A stretch of DNA of 57,275 nucleotides, taken from a virus (lineage: Duplodnaviria; Caudoviricetes). The notes below the pieces were generated by a model. It was not told the origin of the DNA. It was given only the letters and a program-made list of their open reading frames with translations, and searched no databases. This document shows, one piece after another, positions 8,221 to 16,965 of the stretch (the first letter of the stretch is position 1; every line of letters begins with the position of its first letter). The DNA lies in the IMG/VR virus record IMGVR_UViG_3300021375_000031, positions 1-57,275 of that record, one strand, 5' to 3'. The translations under genes were made by a program, and so were the position numbers.

Positions 8221-11097
8221 TTACATATCTTTGATTACGTTGTGAATCTTTCTCAAATAGTTTGCTTGTTCTTGCTGTAATATTTCTGCTCTCAGTTGAG
8301 AATCAGTATTGTCTGTGTTACTAGCATTTAGAATTGCTTGTTGCTTTTTGTATTCTTCTGTGCCTTCTGTGTATTGGGCATCTAAATCTATACCTAGTTG
8401 TTTTGCACTATTCTGCATCAACTCTTTTTGACGGTCTTTGATAGCATCTATATCTGATTGAATACTTTTTCTAGATTTTTTATTACTAGTCATAGCCAAG
8501 TCTTCTTCTAGTATACTTAACTGTGTGTCAAGGTACTTGTCTTCTGCTTGTAAACTTTCCATTAATATATTTGAAAACTTTTCACTGGATTTTGCAATGG
8601 CATTATCAGCCGTCATTCCAAACGGTACTAGGAAATTGTCTGTGAGTATCTGCTTGTATTGATTTATATTTGATGCATCTGTTCGAAGCGAATCAATTTC
8701 ATCAGCACTCCAAGTTAAGCCATCACCTATAGCATCTCCTACCATTTGCGCCGCCGCAGTGGTTAAAAATCCTACTGGTCCTAGTAAAAATCCTAATGCC
8801 CCTATTGCCATACCTATTCCGCCGCCAGTTCCTTCTGCTCTTCTGGCATAAGTTTCTATAATATCTCTGCCTTGTTGCATTTGACCATCTCTGCTACCTG
8901 CCAACATATCACCTATAACATCAGCACCTGAGAAAGCAAGACTGAGTGGTCCTGCAACTCTTCCTGCAGATGAGAGTGCTTTACCTGTTTTAGTTTGACC
9001 CATAAAGTTTAAGGCTGTTGCTCCTGGTCTAGTTTGTGCTAATGCTTGTTGAGATTTACTTAAATTTTTGTATGCGTTTCCACGTTTATCATACAAGCCT
9101 GCATTTGTAATTCTTCCTCCGGCAGGAGTTCTAGTCATACCTGCGGCAAACCTTGTGCCCCTGGTTACTAGAGGTGCAATCATAGGACCTAACACCATTA
9201 AACCTAACACTTTTAAAATAATTTCCATTTTGTCTACTATGCCGCCAAGTACATTGGCAAATGTTGCTAGTGATTTACCAATTCCGTCAAATACTCCTGC
9301 AATATTTTGTGCGGCATCTATGTGTTTATTTTCAGATTTTATACCATTTTCTAGTGCTTTCGTCTGTTCTAGAATTTTTGCCCTTTGATCTTCACTTAAA
9401 GTATCATCATCTCTTAATCTAGCCTTTCTGCCGTCTATTTCTTTCTGCATAAATTTTATATTTTGTGCCGCTTCTTTGGCTCTATCTGCTTTTTCATTGT
9501 CTTCGCTTGACCTAAGACTTCTAACAAAATTCTCTATGTGCTCTGACATCCTGATAGCCATTTTACCAAATTTTTCTCCGAAATTATTTGCCGCAAGTTT
9601 TATTTTTTCGGCATTCAAAGTAAGGCTGTTGCTGAAACCATCTATTGTTGCAGATCCTGGAATTAAAGTGTTCATCAGATTCATTAATGCTGTATTCATT
9701 CCTTTTATAGCATCTTCATTGCTGAATAGTGTGATAAGAAAATTCCCAAAGGAATTCCTAACAGCATCCATATTCCTTCTAAACTGACTGAAATTTTTCA
9801 CTTGATCTTGGGCGAGTTTTTTAGCGGTAAAACCAAATAAAGAAATACTTGTTTTTGCTCTTTCAAAATTGTTAGTGAATTCAAGAAGTTTTGTGGCTGA
9901 TTCATCGCCTGCCCTAGCAAGAATGAATAAACGTTGCCTAGTTGCTTCACTTTGATTGCCTAGCAACTTGCTCATACGTTCTCGCATTTCTACTTCATTT
10001 AATTCTCCTGTGAGCAGACCCATTCGCAAATTTTGAAACTCCTTGTTCATTCCTGGCAATGCTCTCACAATACCAACTGCGGCGTCACTAAAACCTAATG
10101 CTCCTTTACCTGCGGCATCTATAAATGCGGCGGCTATCTGCCCACCTGCTTCTCCGCCCACTCTAATCATTTCATCTGCAAACTTGGTCATTGTGTCTAA
10201 CTGCATTTCTCTGGCTTGTTTGCTACCCCTAGCAAGACCTATTAGTGCATCGCCTGAAGTCACTGCGGCGTGCCTTAATGCTACAAACTCATTCACACTT
10301 AGACCTAAAACTTGTGCGTATTCAATGGCTCTGTCTGCTGATTCTAGCATTGCCGATTCAAAACTCTTAGACCCAACGTCTATCATACCTATTTGATTGA
10401 TTCTGAATTCTGTTTCTCTACCTATAAACTCTGCGGCTTCGGCGGCGGAGTAACCAAATTTTATAAGAGGACTATTTACATCTGTAACTGTTTTTATTAA
10501 ACCACTAAAACTTCGGGCATTTAAGGCTGTTACTCCTGAGAATGTATTAAGCACTCCGGCAAGTTCATCGAACGACATACCCATACCAGTTGCCGTAGTG
10601 GCTAAATCATTTGCAAAACCGTTTACATTCAATGCAAAACCTGTGCCTGCTTGTATGCTGGCTTCCATAGTACCGACATATTTCATCATTGCTTCACCGG
10701 CATAAGTAGCCGCTGTTCTCAGCAACACAAAACCTGCTGTGCCCAATGCACTACTTAATGCTCCAAAACTTCTGCCTAGACTGGCGGCGGCTTTTCGATT
10801 AAATATCGACTGACCTCTTTCAAGTTTTAAATTGTCTACTAAACCAGACCGTTCTCTGTTTTCTTTTTTTAGGTTATTTGCAAATTCATTTGCTGTTCGT
10901 TTAACATCGTCGAATGTTCCTTTGCCTGAGCCTGCATTTTTTACAGTCTGTCTGCTTGATGATCCTGCAGAACCTCCGCCCAGTTTGTTTATTAGATTAA
11001 TTAAATCTTTGGCTGTTTTTTCCGTGATGAAATCTGGTATACCGTCTACCTTAAATTGACTTCCATTGCCTCCAATTTCAGTTAATGTTATTGCCAT
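8221..11097 (-). CDS. Tape measure-like protein (958 aa)
   Basis: Long Ala/Gly-rich helical protein with coiled coils, a hydrophobic segment (ILKVLGLMVLGPMIAPLV) and a glycine zipper (GGGIGMAIGALGFLLGPVG); adjacent to a gp26-like chaperone. Confidence 0.7.
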   Translation of the reverse strand: MAITLTEIGGNGSQFKVDGIPDFITEKTAKDLINLINKLGGGSAGSSSRQTVKNAGSGKGTFDDVKRTANEFANNLKKENRERSGLVDNLKLERGQSIFNRKAAASLGRSFGALSSALGTAGFVLLRTAATYAGEAMMKYVGTMEASIQAGTGFALNVNGFANDLATTATGMGMSFDELAGVLNTFSGVTALNARSFSGLIKTVTDVNSPLIKFGYSAAEAAEFIGRETEFRINQIGMIDVGSKSFESAMLESADRAIEYAQVLGLSVNEFVALRHAAVTSGDALIGLARGSKQAREMQLDTMTKFADEMIRVGGEAGGQIAAAFIDAAGKGALGFSDAAVGIVRALPGMNKEFQNLRMGLLTGELNEVEMRERMSKLLGNQSEATRQRLFILARAGDESATKLLEFTNNFERAKTSISLFGFTAKKLAQDQVKNFSQFRRNMDAVRNSFGNFLITLFSNEDAIKGMNTALMNLMNTLIPGSATIDGFSNSLTLNAEKIKLAANNFGEKFGKMAIRMSEHIENFVRSLRSSEDNEKADRAKEAAQNIKFMQKEIDGRKARLRDDDTLSEDQRAKILEQTKALENGIKSENKHIDAAQNIAGVFDGIGKSLATFANVLGGIVDKMEIILKVLGLMVLGPMIAPLVTRGTRFAAGMTRTPAGGRITNAGLYDKRGNAYKNLSKSQQALAQTRPGATALNFMGQTKTGKALSSAGRVAGPLSLAFSGADVIGDMLAGSRDGQMQQGRDIIETYARRAEGTGGGIGMAIGALGFLLGPVGFLTTAAAQMVGDAIGDGLTWSADEIDSLRTDASNINQYKQILTDNFLVPFGMTADNAIAKSSEKFSNILMESLQAEDKYLDTQLSILEEDLAMTSNKKSRKSIQSDIDAIKDRQKELMQNSAKQLGIDLDAQYTEGTEEYKKQQAILNASNTDNTDSQLRAEILQQEQANYLRKIHNVIKDM

Positions 11098-11188: not shown

Positions 11189-12082
11189 ATGAGCGACGAG
11201 AACACACAGAATATAGCAAGTAACCCACTTAAAGGGTTTTTTAGAAATCCAGGATTATATATTTCACTACCCAGTAGTGGAGCATTTTACGAACCAGGAG
11301 AAATAAAATTCGACAGAGGAGAAGAATTAGCAGTTTATCCTATGACAGCACAAGACGAAATGATTACAAGAAGTCCTGATGCATTATTAAACGGAGATGC
11401 TGTTTACAAAGTTATTGCAAGTTGCGTACCTGGAATTATATATCCAACAAAATTAACAGCCAAAGATGCTCAATCATTAATGATTGGTATTAGATGTGCT
11501 ACTTACGGCGATGAGCAAGAAATAAATCAAACGTGTCCGGAATGTAGAGCAGAAAGCAAGTATATGATGAACCTTAGAGATGTTATTGCAAACATTGAAC
11601 CGTTCACTGACAATCACGAAGTTAAAACTTCAAATGGTTTAAAAATTGTGCTTACACCAGTAAGTTACGATTCAACGTTGGCTACTAGCAGATACACATT
11701 TGAAAATGCTTCTATTTTAGCCAGTATGGCAAATGTGGCAGATGAAGATGCTGTTACGCAAACAGAAAGAATGGAAACATTTAGAAATGCTTTTGCCAAA
11801 ATGGCAAATTTAAATTTACAAATTATGTTAGACAGTATCAAATCTATTACTATACACAATGCTTCAGAAGAAACACAAGAAACAGTTGTTACTGACAAAG
11901 AACATATTACTGAATTCCTAACCAACTGTGATGCTAAAACCAGCCAACAGATTGAACAAGCAATAGCAGAATACAATAGCACAATTTCAACTGAAACATT
12001 ATCTGCAACTTGTGGCGAATGTTCACACGATTATGAAACACCATTGGAGTTTGATCCAGTAAGTTTTTTCTCAGGGTCCTAA
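11189..12082 (+). CDS. gp26: Baseplate hub assembly/tail chaperone, T4 gp26-like
   Basis: NPL..FFR.P.LYI.LPS.G.FY, VYPMTAQDE, IR.ATYG, two CxxC motifs (CPEC, CGEC), ending FDPVSFF. Confidence 0.75.
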   Translation: MSDENTQNIASNPLKGFFRNPGLYISLPSSGAFYEPGEIKFDRGEELAVYPMTAQDEMITRSPDALLNGDAVYKVIASCVPGIIYPTKLTAKDAQSLMIGIRCATYGDEQEINQTCPECRAESKYMMNLRDVIANIEPFTDNHEVKTSNGLKIVLTPVSYDSTLATSRYTFENASILASMANVADEDAVTQTERMETFRNAFAKMANLNLQIMLDSIKSITIHNASEETQETVVTDKEHITEFLTNCDAKTSQQIEQAIAEYNSTISTETLSATCGECSHDYETPLEFDPVSFFSGS

Positions 12083-12120
12083 GTAGCGAAGATCCTGAAC
12101 TGATCCAGGAGTACTTAGGA
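12064..12120 (+). other. Candidate programmed -1 ribosomal frameshift signal
   Basis: In-frame T TTT TTC heptamer, 6-nt spacer, stem TCCTAAGTA (12077-85)/TACTTAGGA (12112-20) with inner TCCTG/CAGGA. Confidence 0.7.
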
Positions 12121-12312
12121 CGAATCAAGCAAGAATCAGAAGAGATTGTTAGATCCCTAACACTAATAGTAATGAATTACGAAGGTGGTATAAGTTATTC
12201 CGAAGTATGGGAAATGTCTCATTATCAAAGAGATATAGCAATAAAAGAACTAGTCAAGAAGAGTGATGCAATAAAGTCTTCTCAAGGCATTTCAACTCAA
12301 AAACAATTATAA
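12070..12312 (+). CDS. gp51-like C-terminal ORF without its own start, probably expressed by -1 frameshift from gp26-like (fusion ~374 aa)
   Basis: The -1 frame reads LRVLSSEDPELIQEYLGRIKQESEEIVRSLTLIVMNYEGGISYSEVWEMSHYQRDIAIKEL...KQL*. GGISYSEVWEMS..QR resembles gp51/gpT-type chaperone tails. Slippery site at 12064-12070. Confidence 0.7.
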   Translation, partial: LRVLSSEDPELIQEYLGRIKQESEEIVRSLTLIVMNYEGGISYSEVWEMSHYQRDIAIKELVKKSDAIKSSQGISTQKQL

Positions 12313-12339
12313 AGAACTATAAACAACTAAACACTTTAT

Positions 12340-12357
12340 AGACACTTCGTGTCTTTT
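12340..12357 (+). terminator. Probable terminator for the gp26/gp51 transcript
   Basis: AGACAC-TTC-GTGTCT followed by TTT, ~28 nt after the 12312 stop. Confidence 0.5.
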
Positions 12358-12856
12358 AAAACTACATTCAATCGTTTCGTTTCACTTCACTCTTTCATTT
12401 GTTTTAAAGTTTTTTAAATTAATATTTAATTAACATTGGCTTATCTCGAAAGTGGAGTCATAATTCACCCTTGCGGGTGAAAAATAAATCTCATCTCGAT
12501 GAGCCTCGTCATCTCTAACCCAGGTGCTATAAAGAGGTGGTGAGCCTTATCCCCTCATACACTACTGTCACGAATCTCACGGAAACCAATATAACCTGGT
12601 AGAGTTGAGTTATATTGACTGCAGGTTGCTTTTTCTCAGAGCCTGATCATTTAATACTGTTTGTCGTTTGTCTGTATTTCATTTAACGCCATACATTCCA
12701 GAATCTCGCACCGGGTGTTTCCATTGCCGGATTGTCAAAGAAATCGATATTAATAGCCTCGATGGGGTGGTGTATGGACCTATGTGTGCCTTGTGTAGCC
12801 TTGTGTGTTTGACTTTGCGTCTGTGTGTGCCGTAATGTTTGTTGTTGCAAAAATAG
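12340..12856 (-). ncRNA. Large structured non-coding RNA candidate (~500 nt), family not identified
   Basis: No ORF of 60 aa or more. Helices include TTCACCC-GCAA-GGGTGAA (GNRA loop on the - strand), CAATATAAC/GTTATATTG, CTCATC/GATGAG, ATCGA/TCGAT, CCGG/CCGG around a GAAA loop, CAGG/CCTG, and a long-range 9/10 pairing of 12556-65 with 12767-76. Confidence 0.65.
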
Positions 12857-13282
12857 TTATCTATCTTTTAATGCTTCTTTTAATATTTGTGAACCTCCGA
12901 CTCTTACATTGATGATTCCGTTGTAATAGTCGTCACTTAATAATACTTTGTGTTTGAATTGTAGTTCTGCTTCAACGTAACTTGCTACTCCTCTACTAGG
13001 GCAATACTCTAATATCTCTCTAGTAAATTGGTCTTCTCCAAGTTCGTTGACGTCATTTATTAAATGATCCGAACTCCCCCAATAAGTACGCCAGTCACTT
13101 TCTTTATAACCACGTCTTTTATTCTTTCTGCCTTTTAATGGGGGTTTGGTTGTTTTGAATTTGGCAAGTTTCTTACCAATATACTTCATACCGTTTTGGT
13201 TGTTTGTGATTAAATATACAAATGCTTCGCAATCATCAGGAAGTGTGTCTACTACTTTACCGTTATGTGTCCAGTCGCTCAT
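12857..13282 (-). CDS. Small stand-alone GIY-YIG endonuclease (Seg-like catalytic domain only)
   Basis: FVYLITN..NGMKYIGKK, YWGSS, FTREILEYC, E..LQF, YYNG; TAATG-coupled to gp46. Confidence 0.8.
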   Translation of the reverse strand: MSDWTHNGKVVDTLPDDCEAFVYLITNNQNGMKYIGKKLAKFKTTKPPLKGRKNKRRGYKESDWRTYWGSSDHLINDVNELGEDQFTREILEYCPSRGVASYVEAELQFKHKVLLSDDYYNGIINVRVGGSQILKEALKDR

Positions 13283-15048
13283 TAGTTTACATACTCCGTA
13301 TCGGTATTGTAACTAGTGAAGCCTCCCTCTTTGATTACAGTTAGTACATTGTTCACTCTGCCTTGTAGTTCTTCTCTGTGGCTGATTAAGTAAATGTTTT
13401 TGTTCTGCTCTCTGCTCATTTTTTTAAGTATGCTAAGAGCATTCTCTACACCTACACCGTCTAGTCCACTGTCTATGAGTTCGTCTATGCAAAGGAAATT
13501 CATTGGCTGATTAAGACTCTCATATATGTCTCTAAATGCCCAACTAAGACTTAAAATGAGTCTATTTCGCTCTCCTCTACTAAGGTTATCAAAGTCTAAG
13601 TCACGTCCAAATTCTGTAATTTCTACACTTAAATCGCTCTTAAATTTAACATCGTGTGGTAATCCTATGCGTTCTAGGTAGTTTGCAAGCCTATGATTGA
13701 GGAACATTAAGTTTTGGTCAATTATACGTCTTCTAATAAAACTATCTTTAGAAGTCAATAGTTTATATAAGAAATCTTGATGTTCTCTTAACTCATTCAA
13801 CTCGTTTACAGTCTCCCAACTTATAGGTTGTAGTCCTGTATCTTCTAATGTTTTAATTTGTTCTATATACGGATTCTCTAATGCTACAGCATCTTTAAGT
13901 TGCTGGGCAATATTGTTTAAATTGTTTTGATGTGCTATTGCTTCTTCTTTTGTGTGGTAAAACACTTCTGGTGATTCTGGAATATCGCCTACATCATCTA
14001 TGTCTTTTGTGATGTTTACAATATTTTTATCTAGTTCTTTGAAATGTTCTTGTTCTGTTGCTAGTTTGTTTTCTAAATCTTGTGTGTATTCTTCGTGTGT
14101 ATCTAAATGTGCTGTACTTTGTTCACAAGCAGGGCAAACACCTTCTTTTGCTTTTTCGATGTTTACTTTTAATTCTTGTATTCTAGTATCGGATCTTGCA
14201 AGACTGGATACGTTTGAGTCTAAATCTTTTTGCAGTTGTTTTTTCAAGGTAGACTTTTCGTTTATTTCACCTAGTAGTGTATGCGACTCTAGTTCTGTAT
14301 CTATATCTATCTCTTGTAGTGTTGCAATAGCAGTTTCAAAGTTAGCAATCTTGTCATTGCTATTCTTTTGCCACGCCTTACTGCGACTTTCAATATCTTT
14401 TATGCTTTTTTCAACTCTGCTGTTGCTATCTTTAACAGCATTTATTCTAATCTCTTCTTCTTTTATACTGTCTCTAGTTTCTTTTAGTCTAACTTTAAGT
14501 ATTTCTGCTTTTTCACTTAGTTCTGTTATGCCCAACAGTTGCTCAATCATTGCACGTTGGTCATTTGCTTTCATACCTAAGAACGGTTCGGTGTAAGTGT
14601 TAAGTGCAACAATGTGTTTGAACATATTATGACTAAAACCAATTAGTTTTTCTATATCCTTTTGTGTCTCTCTGCTGTCACCTTGTTGTTCTTGGTCTTC
14701 TTTTTCTTCTCCGTTCACATAAAACTTTAAAAAGTTAGGACGTCTTGCTCTTTCTATTTTGTACTCTATGCCATTTTTTTCAAACTCCACACTTACAACC
14801 ATATTCTTACCATTTGTTTTGTTGATAAGATTATCTCTTCTAATGTTTGTTAGTGCTTCACCATATAAGGCATAACTGAGTGCATTGATAATAGTAGTTT
14901 TACCAGTACCATTTCTGCTACCGTCTCCACCTAGGTCTAAATTATTACCTAAAACCAGTGTGAGTGTTTCACTGTCGAATCTTACTCCTTGTGTGTTGTT
15001 ACCAACACTCATAAAATTCTTTACAGTTAATGATTTAATCTTTAGCAT
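13282..15048 (-). CDS. gp46: Recombination endonuclease ATPase subunit (SbcC/Rad50-like)
   Basis: Walker A NGTGKTT, zinc hook CPAC, signature LSRGE, Walker B IDELID, ISH. Confidence 0.95.
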   Translation of the reverse strand: MLKIKSLTVKNFMSVGNNTQGVRFDSETLTLVLGNNLDLGGDGSRNGTGKTTIINALSYALYGEALTNIRRDNLINKTNGKNMVVSVEFEKNGIEYKIERARRPNFLKFYVNGEEKEDQEQQGDSRETQKDIEKLIGFSHNMFKHIVALNTYTEPFLGMKANDQRAMIEQLLGITELSEKAEILKVRLKETRDSIKEEEIRINAVKDSNSRVEKSIKDIESRSKAWQKNSNDKIANFETAIATLQEIDIDTELESHTLLGEINEKSTLKKQLQKDLDSNVSSLARSDTRIQELKVNIEKAKEGVCPACEQSTAHLDTHEEYTQDLENKLATEQEHFKELDKNIVNITKDIDDVGDIPESPEVFYHTKEEAIAHQNNLNNIAQQLKDAVALENPYIEQIKTLEDTGLQPISWETVNELNELREHQDFLYKLLTSKDSFIRRRIIDQNLMFLNHRLANYLERIGLPHDVKFKSDLSVEITEFGRDLDFDNLSRGERNRLILSLSWAFRDIYESLNQPMNFLCIDELIDSGLDGVGVENALSILKKMSREQNKNIYLISHREELQGRVNNVLTVIKEGGFTSYNTDTEYVN

Positions 15049-15049
15049 A

Positions 15050-16063
15050 TTAAATTTCTATATCGTTATAAATGTCTATTAGCATTTGTTTATCGATTGT
15101 ATTACTTTCTACAGTTTCTAATTGTTGCAACACAATTTGGTTAACTGTTTCAAAATGAATATCCTCTTCTACATACTCTTCTGCTTCTTCTTTTGCAGGT
15201 ATAAGACTGAGTTCTCTTACTCCAAACTGTTTGCTAAATGCTTCTTTAATAAATGTTGCTTCTTCATAACTGATAGGCACATCTATCTTAACCCTAGCAT
15301 AAGTGTTTTCATTAAGTAGTTCATCTTTTTCATCTAGAAGTTGTTTTAGTCCACAACTTACATATCTAGGACAGTCGGGCCAGTTTACAAACACCGGCTC
15401 TTGGTCCCATTCTAAAAACATTGCTCCACGTTCGTTATCGAACACGTCTGCGTAATTGTGCGGGAAAGCATTACCTATATAATGTATATTGTTTTTGTAT
15501 TGACGTTTGTGGAAGTGCCCACTAAACACATACTCGGGTCCTTCTAAATGTTCTGCTTTAATTCCACCGTGGTCTGGCATCTCTACCATTGCATTCATTT
15601 TAAAGTATGGTAATTCAAAGTGACCAAACATATATTTAACTTGCATCTTTGCAACTTGTTTATGTTCATCTCCGACTAGCCAAGGGATAATAGCACAGTC
15701 TCCTTGTTCCATTATCTCATCTACCATAACAAAGTTATCTAAGTCTCTAGCAAACTCCATACTGTTGAGTTCACGTTTGTCTCTGTAAAACAAATCGTGG
15801 TTACCTGTTATAAAGTAAACAGTCTCAAATGCGTCGTTAAGTTTCTTTAAGTCTCTCCAACTCGCATTTAGTGTTGCCACGTTTACACTTGCTCTTTGAT
15901 GATGCCAATCACCCAAGAACAAACAAGTCTCTGCACCTCTGGCGTGAGCCTCGGCAATAAACCAGTCTATAAATTTGTTACAGTCTTTAAGATGAACACC
16001 GCTATTTGATTTCAAGCCGTAGTGTATATCTGTAAATACTGCGGCGTGTTTAAATAGATTCAT
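15050..16063 (-). CDS. gp47: Recombination endonuclease nuclease subunit (SbcD/Mre11-like)
   Basis: Metallophosphoesterase motifs TDIHYG, LGDWHH, GNHD, GHFE, SGHFH. Confidence 0.95.
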   Translation of the reverse strand: MNLFKHAAVFTDIHYGLKSNSGVHLKDCNKFIDWFIAEAHARGAETCLFLGDWHHQRASVNVATLNASWRDLKKLNDAFETVYFITGNHDLFYRDKRELNSMEFARDLDNFVMVDEIMEQGDCAIIPWLVGDEHKQVAKMQVKYMFGHFELPYFKMNAMVEMPDHGGIKAEHLEGPEYVFSGHFHKRQYKNNIHYIGNAFPHNYADVFDNERGAMFLEWDQEPVFVNWPDCPRYVSCGLKQLLDEKDELLNENTYARVKIDVPISYEEATFIKEAFSKQFGVRELSLIPAKEEAEEYVEEDIHFETVNQIVLQQLETVESNTIDKQMLIDIYNDIEI

Positions 16064-16910
16064 CTAAATTGGTATTTTCCTGCTTTGCTAATTCTCTGTT
16101 TGCTTTAGTTTCTTCTTCGTGTTTGATTTGTCTAGTGAAACTTGGCAACTGCCCTGCTTCGATAAGTAAATCATCTCTGATGTTTTGATTACGTTTTTCA
16201 ATGTTTAAAACTCTAGTAAAACTATTTGTAATTGCGGCAGTATAATAAGCAAATGGATTATCCGATTTTGCTTCATTAAACTGTAAACCAATTTGTGCTA
16301 ATTGCACTAATGCCTGACCTCTCATTTCATCAACGTAAGTATATCCTCTCCAGTTTGCTCTTTGACTATATCTTTCAACTAACTTTAAGAACATATGGCC
16401 CAACTTGGGAGTAATAGTTCCTTTGGTTAAATCAAACTTACCACTCTTAGGTCCGCCATTCCAATGACTTCTTGCTACTTCTGTAAGTTCGTCATCTTTG
16501 TAAGCATAGTGTTTAAAAGGTAAAAAGTTTAGTTTTACTTTTGTTTCTGCAATGTTCTTAGGATTATTTTTCCTACCTGGTTCATCAGGTATGTGGTCAA
16601 AGTCCATAACTCTAAAAGTTAATTCATCTAAACTAAAACTATCTGGATCAATAATAAATTCCTTTTGTCTAGGTTTTTTATTTGCTGGACCATCGTATTC
16701 TGCTACAGCAGATTTATAGTTTAGTTCTTTTAATTTTTGTGCTTTATTAATTCTTGCAGTTTCAATTGCATTGCTGTCAATTTCATCTGTGTGATTTACA
16801 ATAATATCAAAATCATAGTGGTTTTGTGATTTAACCCAACAAAACGACATTTTGCTTTTGTGAATCTCTAATAAGATATCTTTATTATTAAGATAATTTG
16901 TTTTAGCCAT
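16050..16910 (-). CDS. gp55: Late-transcription sigma factor, T4 gp55 family (start revised to ATG 16910, 286 aa)
   Basis: NYLNNKD.L.EI, NWRGYTY.DEM, QFNEAKSDNPFAYYT. GGAG RBS at 16916-16919; the track start 16937 falls inside the -10 box. Confidence 0.88.
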   Translation of the reverse strand: MAKTNYLNNKDILLEIHKSKMSFCWVKSQNHYDFDIIVNHTDEIDSNAIETARINKAQKLKELNYKSAVAEYDGPANKKPRQKEFIIDPDSFSLDELTFRVMDFDHIPDEPGRKNNPKNIAETKVKLNFLPFKHYAYKDDELTEVARSHWNGGPKSGKFDLTKGTITPKLGHMFLKLVERYSQRANWRGYTYVDEMRGQALVQLAQIGLQFNEAKSDNPFAYYTAAITNSFTRVLNIEKRNQNIRDDLLIEAGQLPSFTRQIKHEEETKANRELAKQENTNLDESI

Positions 16911-16936
16911 TTGTTCTCCAAATATATTTTTAAACA

Positions 16937-16965
16937 ATTATAGTACACTTTTACGGCATTGTCAA
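16937..16965 (-). promoter_or_regulatory. Consensus sigma70 (early) promoter for gp55-gp47-gp46-GIY-YIG
   Basis: Perfect TTGACA-N17-TATAAT. Confidence 0.9.

Follow-up and report, generated by a model that had tools for sequence, protein, structure and literature searches.

The minus strand of positions 12340-12800 in the viral record IMGVR_UViG_3300021375_000031 encodes a structured non-coding RNA of about 450 nt, with several domains and two pseudoknots. The stretch that we analyzed, 57,275 nucleotides long and called the window here, is a fragment of an uncultured T4-like phage record. Within it the RNA occupies a 544-base gap (12313-12856) between two convergent genes, a 46-aa open reading frame (ORF) on the plus strand and a gene for a GIY-YIG nuclease on the minus strand. 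Many uncultured marine T4-like phages carry RNAs of the same family, which is absent from the Rfam 15 catalogue. Downstream of its core it carries the same short sequence word at two sites, and we tentatively propose, with a probability of roughly 40%, that the RNA acts in trans as a scaffold presenting two identical recognition words to one sequence-specific reader.

A search of IMG/VR with the GIY-YIG protein returned at least 596 relatives, encoded in all but four of 600 candidate stretches, from which we retained the 80 best loci. The gap sequence lay directly behind the GIY-YIG gene in 54 of these 80, at 68-100% nucleotide identity and mostly across 400-540 nt; the gp26 protein encoded in those loci was just 28-39% identical, the window's closest relatives excepted. 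Searching from the RNA instead, with its most conserved 16-mer (the loop of hairpin P5, described below), we recovered at least 119 IMG/VR stretches. A profile search of 196 loci then gave 146 matches. Among them were 68 distinct copies of full length, whose pairwise identity had a median of 71%, together with a more distant class whose match was limited to the central part of the RNA. The covariance model R1, built on the core, scored the window at 144 bits, the distant class at 88-102 bits and a third tier at 46-58 bits. All of these relatives are metagenomic contigs; when the gap was compared by blastn with 50,697 phage records, no match appeared.

Evidence for the fold came from two alignments, A2 with 54 sequences over the whole RNA and A1 with 52 sequences, distant members included, over the core. 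Outside the core the sequences were aligned with MAFFT, so some of the cells scored as unpaired reflect alignment error. The structure drawn on A2 holds 110 pairs in 19 helices, and 96.1% of its cells were paired compared with 85.8% after shuffling; double-sided changes occurred in 67 of the 110 pairs, none of 500 shuffles reached the alignment on any measure, and slid controls were only 36-42% paired. For the core in A1 the corresponding values were 93.7% and 80.7%, with double-sided changes in 36 of 45 pairs. Both pseudoknots, PK1 and PK2, covaried. When mutual information was calculated on the 68 copies, the top-ranked columns formed Watson-Crick pairs, each represented by two to four different base combinations. 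The cells held 298 G-U and 19 A-C combinations, an asymmetry that identifies the minus strand of the window as the one encoding the RNA, as a preliminary description of this DNA, made from the sequence alone, had called it.

A protein-coding reading of the same stretch was rejected, as 587 of 655 indel runs were not multiples of 3 and the substitutions lacked 3-periodicity (1973/1841/1714 by position mod 3). The longest stop-free stretch on the RNA strand had a median of 49 codons. ARAGORN detected no tRNA or tmRNA in the gap. Single-sequence folding contributed little: the minus strand folded weakly better than its shuffles (z = -1.81; 5 in 100 of these were equally good) and the plus strand no better (z = -0.44). 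The case for the RNA therefore rests on conservation and covariation. Conservation and covariation behind related GIY-YIG genes were what the preliminary description had suggested looking for, and both were found; its proposal of a large functional phage RNA, possibly of a new class, is borne out by these together with the two pseudoknots and the lack of an Rfam match.

The elements of the RNA are listed below in the 5' to 3' direction of the transcript, which runs against the numbering of the window.

12783-12856, minus strand: variable CA-rich 5' tail, defined from the relatives' alignments; the 5' end of the RNA lies somewhere within it.
12688-12779, minus strand: 5' domain closed by P1 (12771-12779 with 12688-12695), in which 4 of 8 pairs show double-sided changes.
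12759-12763 with 12743-12747, minus strand: P2, double-sided changes in 5 of 5 pairs.
12727-12739 with 12705-12714, minus strand: P3, GAAA-capped, double-sided changes in 5 of 10 pairs.
12674-12678 with 12653-12657, minus strand: hairpin P4, 100% paired, double-sided changes in 2 of 5 pairs.
12621-12646, minus strand: hairpin P5 with the 16-nt loop CUCUGAGAAAAAGCAA, double-sided changes in 4 of 5 pairs.
12583-12620, minus strand: long hairpin P6, its loop (12600-12604) engaged in PK1, double-sided changes in 13 of 14 pairs.
12521-12580, minus strand: core, holding PK2, P8 and P9.
12576-12580 with 12540-12544, minus strand: PK2, GUGAG with the P9 loop CUCAC, 100% paired, double-sided changes in 4 of 5 pairs.
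12559-12567 with 12521-12527, minus strand: P8, which covaries.
12551-12557 with 12531-12537, minus strand: P9, supported by compensatory changes.
12513-12517, minus strand: 3' strand of PK1, UAGAG, pairing with the P6 loop at 12600-12604, 94.8% paired, double-sided changes in 5 of 5 pairs.
12490-12512, minus strand: module 1, consisting of an AUGAC box (12508-12512), a spacer and word copy 1, UCGAGAU/GAG (12490-12499).
12465-12480, minus strand: hairpin P10, GCAA-capped and flanked by the two words, 93.8% paired, double-sided changes in 2 of 6 pairs.
12440-12461, minus strand: module 2, consisting of an AUGAC box (12457-12461), a spacer and word copy 2, UCGAGAU/AAG (12440-12449).
12355-12408, minus strand: long 3' hairpin P12 with internal loops, double-sided changes in 13 of 14 pairs.
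12340-12354, minus strand: terminal stem-loop P13, 100% paired, double-sided changes in 4 of 6 pairs.

Six of the seven local helices in the preliminary description recur in this structure with compensatory changes: TTCACCC/GGGTGAA as P10, GAGG/CCTC as P9, the 9-bp hairpin as P6, CAGG/CCTG as P5, CCGG..GAAA..CCGG as P3 and ATCGA/TCGAT as P2. The repeat GAGATTC does occur twice. Two other proposed helices gained no support. CTCATC/GATGAG (12490-12503) would leave a loop of 2 nt, and its site is word copy 1. The long-range helix proposed to close the multibranch domain by joining 12556-65 to 12767-76 was 89.1% paired, hardly different from its shuffles (88.8%, with 89 of the 500 reaching as high a value), and had a single double-sided pair; its strands belong to the covarying P1 and P8.

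No stretch is better conserved in the family than the nearly invariant P5 loop, CUCUGAGAAAAAGCAA. At the other extreme, the 5' tail carries short repeats of the GGCACA and AGACNCAAAGTC types and units of the form AGAC-N5-GTC; the tail differs in length between relatives, and the copy number of the repeats differs even between close ones. Some members carry an additional GNRA-capped hairpin in the core, and P3 is often capped by GAAA. P9 contains a UAUGG/CCUAA motif, a putative tetraloop receptor of the classic kind. Read on the plus strand, the P13 region (12340-12362) is a cUUCGg hairpin (cUACGg in relatives) followed by TTTT. From this sequence P13 may plausibly double as a terminator for the convergent gp26 operon, possibly serving both directions. 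A terminator scan of the minus strand called no site, P13 included.

The two modules downstream of the core each consist of an (A/G)UGAC box and a word, lie about 50 nt apart and flank P10. Mutual information singled out columns that covary by identity rather than by pairing, and these are the positions of the word. All 54 main-class copies have one and the same 7-mer at the two sites, even though 5 of its 7 positions vary between phages. The base that follows is consistently different: site 1 has G in every one of the 54 and site 2 has A in 53, and the next two bases again match between sites (in 54/54 and 53/54 copies). Distant copies follow the same rule in the form CUC-N7 ... UCU-same N7, with the two elements 30-120 nt apart in 47 of 50 distinct tails and with 11 different 7-mers. 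The spacing between words is variable, with insertions of up to about 25 nt.

We searched for a pairing partner of the word. Mutual information showed no Watson-Crick partner column for the word positions, no complementary 7-mer occurred at a consistent place within about 5 kb of the RNA, and the 57-kb window held no complementary site. The 10-mer of the window's word has just two exact sites in the window, which are the two copies themselves. Across the family, 28 distinct 7-mers were listed (8 main-class, 11 distant and 11 from the second core type described below, two being shared), and position 6 is A in all of them. The triplet in the centre of the word looks like a codon: AUG, AUA, UUG, GUG, GAG, CAC, CAG and CGU. 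In many sequences, inspected by eye in the alignment, a mini-ORF runs in frame from the AUG of box 2; as a coding unit ending at a stop in word 2 it was rejected, being thrown out of frame where a one-base insertion occurs and absent from the second core type.

A second type of core, in an RNA of about 560-600 nt, occupies the same place behind GIY-YIG in other phages (loci L051, L067, L077, L037, L008, L076 and L284-L401). Its central sequence is different, and what it shares with the first type are the CA-rich 5' repeats, the boxes, the twin words and the 3' hairpins. Its motif GGKWAAGGTCAGAGCC was found at 99 or more distinct sites; the twin-word pattern was present in 95 of 99 and a GIY-YIG gene stood upstream on the same strand in 95 of 99. 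RNAalifold, run on 40 of 77 representatives, predicted 42 pairs, 21 of them with double-sided changes. These loci matched neither R1 nor Rfam.

The neighboring GIY-YIG protein matches Pfam PF19835 over residues 4-124 of its 141 (113.6 bits against a cut-off of 25, E=9e-33), as well as PHROG 447 and homing-endonuclease PHROGs. No solved structure was matched by sequence, and an identity as a T4 endonuclease II-like enzyme was dropped for that reason. Within the clade it is 74-82% identical in amino acids, compared with 63-79% for gp46, gp47 and gp55. How closely it accompanies the RNA can be read from 88 distinct sites of the P5-loop 16-mer among the matches listed, 78 of which are the RNA. GIY-YIG was directly upstream on the same strand in 54 of the 78, upstream with an insert of 0.6-1.6 kb in 8, divergent in 3 and not found nearby in 4, while 9 had too little flank. 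Inserts of this size between the two were seen in L018, L024, L033, L169, L173, L180, L189, L092, L097 and L181.

The arrangement is not fixed. The pair of GIY-YIG and RNA is mostly co-directional with gp46, but among the 41 loci listed there are 9 in which both genes are turned round together. When a 165-aa GIY-YIG of the divergent type was used as the query, at least 600 relatives were obtained, and in 60 of the 80 loci kept R1 matched the RNA, always on the opposite strand and just upstream of the start of the gene. In the third tier GIY-YIG is on the opposite strand or absent; in the third-tier locus L127, which has no GIY-YIG hit, the RNA stands behind ABC-transporter-like genes (permease, ATPase and binding-protein-like), probably auxiliary metabolic genes. 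One phage lineage (L095, L096, L127, L141 and L163) has the RNA without GIY-YIG. The reverse also occurs: Melnitz, among the closest isolates by protein, has a complete genome with a GIY-YIG at 72% identity, no R1 match and no RNA. In L048, L050, L052-L054, L068, L070, L072, L075 and L079 the GIY-YIG gene is followed by an ORF of about 37-47 codons with no RNA after it; this ORF has an AAGG (or TAGG) Shine-Dalgarno-like sequence shortly before its ATG, about 110 nt past the GIY-YIG stop. More distant GIY-YIG homologues occur in 837 phage records; in one of these, from a cyanophage, the gene immediately precedes ferrochelatase.

The RNA had been described at first as the 3' end of a gp55-gp47-gp46-GIY-YIG operon. 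Because the pair can be inverted, a whole subfamily is divergent, and each partner occurs without the other, the RNA is an independent gene and more than the end of that operon; in many phages it needs a promoter of its own. RNA and GIY-YIG are thus close companions that are separable. Most likely GIY-YIG is a habitual neighbor of the homing type that the RNA does not need as a partner.

In the mechanism that we propose, the folded body of the RNA (5' domain, knotted core and 3' hairpins) would form a stable scaffold. Its working end would be the two tandem modules, in which a spacer links an (A/G)UGAC box to a word of 7-10 nt and which lie about 50 nt apart around a hairpin. Both copies of the word would be offered in trans to a single reader, which could be a base-pairing nucleic acid or a dimeric protein. 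The argument is that two sites which agree at as many as nine positions, yet have no partner in cis, suggest one reader that sees both.

Several observations weigh against this proposal. Word 1 can pair with ACAUAGG in the 5' part (93.3% paired) and word 2 with the invariant AUUAUG just upstream of it (94.1%), both with no double-sided change; either pairing may act as an internal switch. GIY-YIG is adjacent in 65 of the 69 informative RNA copies among the matches listed, and since this adjacency has persisted through two rearrangements, a functional link to the nuclease is possible. The promoter scan of the minus strand found no site, a sigma-70-like promoter included. Of 21 sequencing runs listed, 15 are on record as RNA; the four that we used consist of assembled contigs, which in run X1 cover the whole 3.5 kb but are blind to transcription, strand, ends and level. 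The trans-acting step is our inference.

The link to the nuclease could be taken further, with the RNA as the partner of the adjacent GIY-YIG enzyme, supplying target recognition or a scaffold, and the words as specificity elements. The enzyme is a catalytic domain alone, with no DNA-binding domain, and its adjacency to the RNA outlasts both the inversion of the pair and the switch to the divergent arrangement; even the second core type stands behind GIY-YIG in nearly all copies. We nevertheless regard such a partnership as unlikely, given that 4 of the 69 copies lack GIY-YIG, that GIY-YIG genes at 72-76% identity occur without the RNA (in Melnitz and in the loci with the small ORF), and that distant homologues are spread through so many phage records. 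A word of 7 nt is also very short for a guide, and a free-standing homing nuclease would equally show adjacency irrespective of orientation. Direct succession to the GIY-YIG stop codon in the window, along with the missing promoter, would also be expected of a structured 3' untranslated region (UTR) or terminator that stabilizes the GIY-YIG/gp46 message and has no function of its own. That explanation is very improbable: the RNA is divergent from GIY-YIG throughout the 60 subfamily loci, is separated from it by the long inserts in 8 copies, and with nineteen helices, two pseudoknots and matched words far exceeds what a stabilizer needs.

Two further explanations start from the words themselves. 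They might mark equivalent cleavage, ligation or splice-like sites in a self-processing or processed precursor, from which the hairpin segment of about 50 nt would be freed; the two sites share word and box and differ consistently at the next base, and a knotted core with a putative tetraloop-receptor-like motif is a fold of the ribozyme type. We hold this to be unlikely, as models of known ribozymes and introns gave no match, the RNA contains no internal guide that could pair with the words, and no contig in four RNA libraries joins exactly across them, although contigs drop rare forms. The words could instead be DNA repeats for an initiator, with the RNA acting in cis, for example as an origin or primer transcript with an R-loop by analogy with ColE1 RNA II. 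The position of the RNA at the convergent gp46/gp26 junction is fixed over deep divergence, an AT-rich stretch and hairpins follow word 2, and the words are direct repeats, all of which would suit an origin. Their variable spacing fits poorly with phased DNA sites, though, the G-U asymmetry and the pseudoknots indicate selection on a single RNA strand, and the pair with GIY-YIG works either way round at the junction, so a role in cis seems decidedly doubtful. A bolder version of the trans-acting scaffold, which we consider rather unlikely but not far-fetched, makes the twin words a programmable specifier that chooses a nucleic-acid target by pairing, with the scaffold as the effector, which could be a ribozyme or else form the core of a ribonucleoprotein. 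If true, this would be a phage-encoded, re-targetable RNA device of an undescribed kind.

By analogy with the T-box, whose specifier is followed by a conserved purine, a single tRNA species might bind to the RNA in two copies. The idea is attractive because every word has an A after its codon-like triplet. For words of the CAC type the search lent it no support: no phage tRNA-His was present in the five long contigs searched, which are fragments; two of the five hold tRNAs, for Asp, Ala and Thr in one and for Leu, Thr and Ala in the other.

Large, elaborate RNAs without a known job are rare and have repeatedly been a source of new biochemistry. This one is common, since RNA-first and protein-first scans of IMG/VR together give at least hundreds of contigs, and it is carried by T4-like phages of abundant marine bacteria. 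A word that is free to change yet stays the same at two sites implies a specific reader that can be fished for or predicted, which makes the function testable. The identity of that reader would show whether the phage uses a re-targetable RNA for host takeover, counter-defence or the handling of its own nucleic acids. Full-text searches of the literature returned no description of this RNA or of any GIY-YIG-linked or pelagimyophage RNA.

The RNA locus always forms the junction at which the gp55-gp47-gp46 genes converge on gp26. In the window the surrounding genes are as follows.

16050-16937, minus strand: homologue of gp55, the late sigma factor.
15050-16063, minus strand: gp47.
13282-15048, minus strand: gp46.
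12857-13282, minus strand: stand-alone SegE-like GIY-YIG nuclease gene, 141 aa, the RNA's usual neighbor.
12172-12312, plus strand: the 46-aa ORF behind the gp26-like gene, heading toward the gap.
11189-12082, plus strand: gp26-like baseplate-hub gene, heading toward the gap.

Just ahead of its stop the gp26-like gene contains a slippery T_TTT_TTC (near 12064-12070, plus strand), and an open -1 frame extends from 12055 as far as the 46-aa ORF and into it. A -1 frameshift at this run would lengthen gp26 by about 80 residues. A 958-aa ORF at 8221-11097 on the minus strand, adjoining the baseplate-hub gene, had no match in Pfam or PHROG.

Comparison with known families was made first through Rfam 15. 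At gathering score the whole window gave 0 matches, and at E <= 10 the region 12000-13000 gave three hits only, all at chance level (SscA, CRISPR-DR57 and Fibro-purF). No model match was obtained for GOLLD, ROOL, HEARO, OLE, raiA, group I and II introns, RNase P, tmRNA, T-box or 6S; a cmscan-type check of this kind had been the first one recommended. Polynucleobacter-1 (RF01718, gathering score 37 bits) failed to match the window even at E <= 10, and scans of 66 related loci were likewise negative (8 searched at E <= 1, 3 at E <= 10 and 55 at gathering score). The Polynucleobacter-1 RNA motif appears in a table of Weinberg et al. 2010 with fresh water/estuary as its source (PMC2864571). It resembles our RNA in being an orphan structured RNA of aquatic origin with no function assigned. 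It differs in that its model of 141 positions would cover at most one third of the window RNA and would leave out the twin words.

Among systems that combine an RNA gene with a small nuclease, phage T4 offers SegB, a free-standing GIY-YIG homing endonuclease in a tRNA cluster. As with SegB-like homing nucleases, a small GIY-YIG gene lies here near a conserved structured-RNA gene, in either orientation; unlike them, the window's GIY-YIG is not sporadic, since nearly all members of the clade have it in a well-conserved form, and it has no C-terminal DNA-binding part. HEARO and the omega RNAs of IscB and TnpB are likewise structured RNAs beside a small nuclease gene, in which a constant scaffold is combined with a variable segment. 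The nuclease here is GIY-YIG rather than RuvC/HNH, the RNA has two copies of its variable segment, both internal and 7-10 nt long, and Rfam gives no match. RNA and nuclease also occur apart, so that the obligate co-occurrence of an omega-RNA-like system is not seen (4 of the 69 listed copies are without GIY-YIG, and Melnitz is without the RNA). The words do vary as guides do; the complement search, which covered about 5 kb around the RNA and the 57-kb window, found none.

Type III antitoxin RNAs of the ToxI kind have tandem repeats that stay alike, each of them read by one protein. The likeness lies in the repeated units being kept alike; our RNA has no downstream toxin gene and carries two short modules in a large knotted scaffold in place of tandem repeats along its whole length. 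GOLLD and ROOL are likewise large, multi-helix, pseudoknotted and phage-associated RNAs without an assigned function (PMC12286853). Matched variable words are not known as a feature of either. The window RNA differs from both in being smaller (about 450 nt), in its fixed place at the gp46/gp26 junction of T4-like phages and in its matched variable words.

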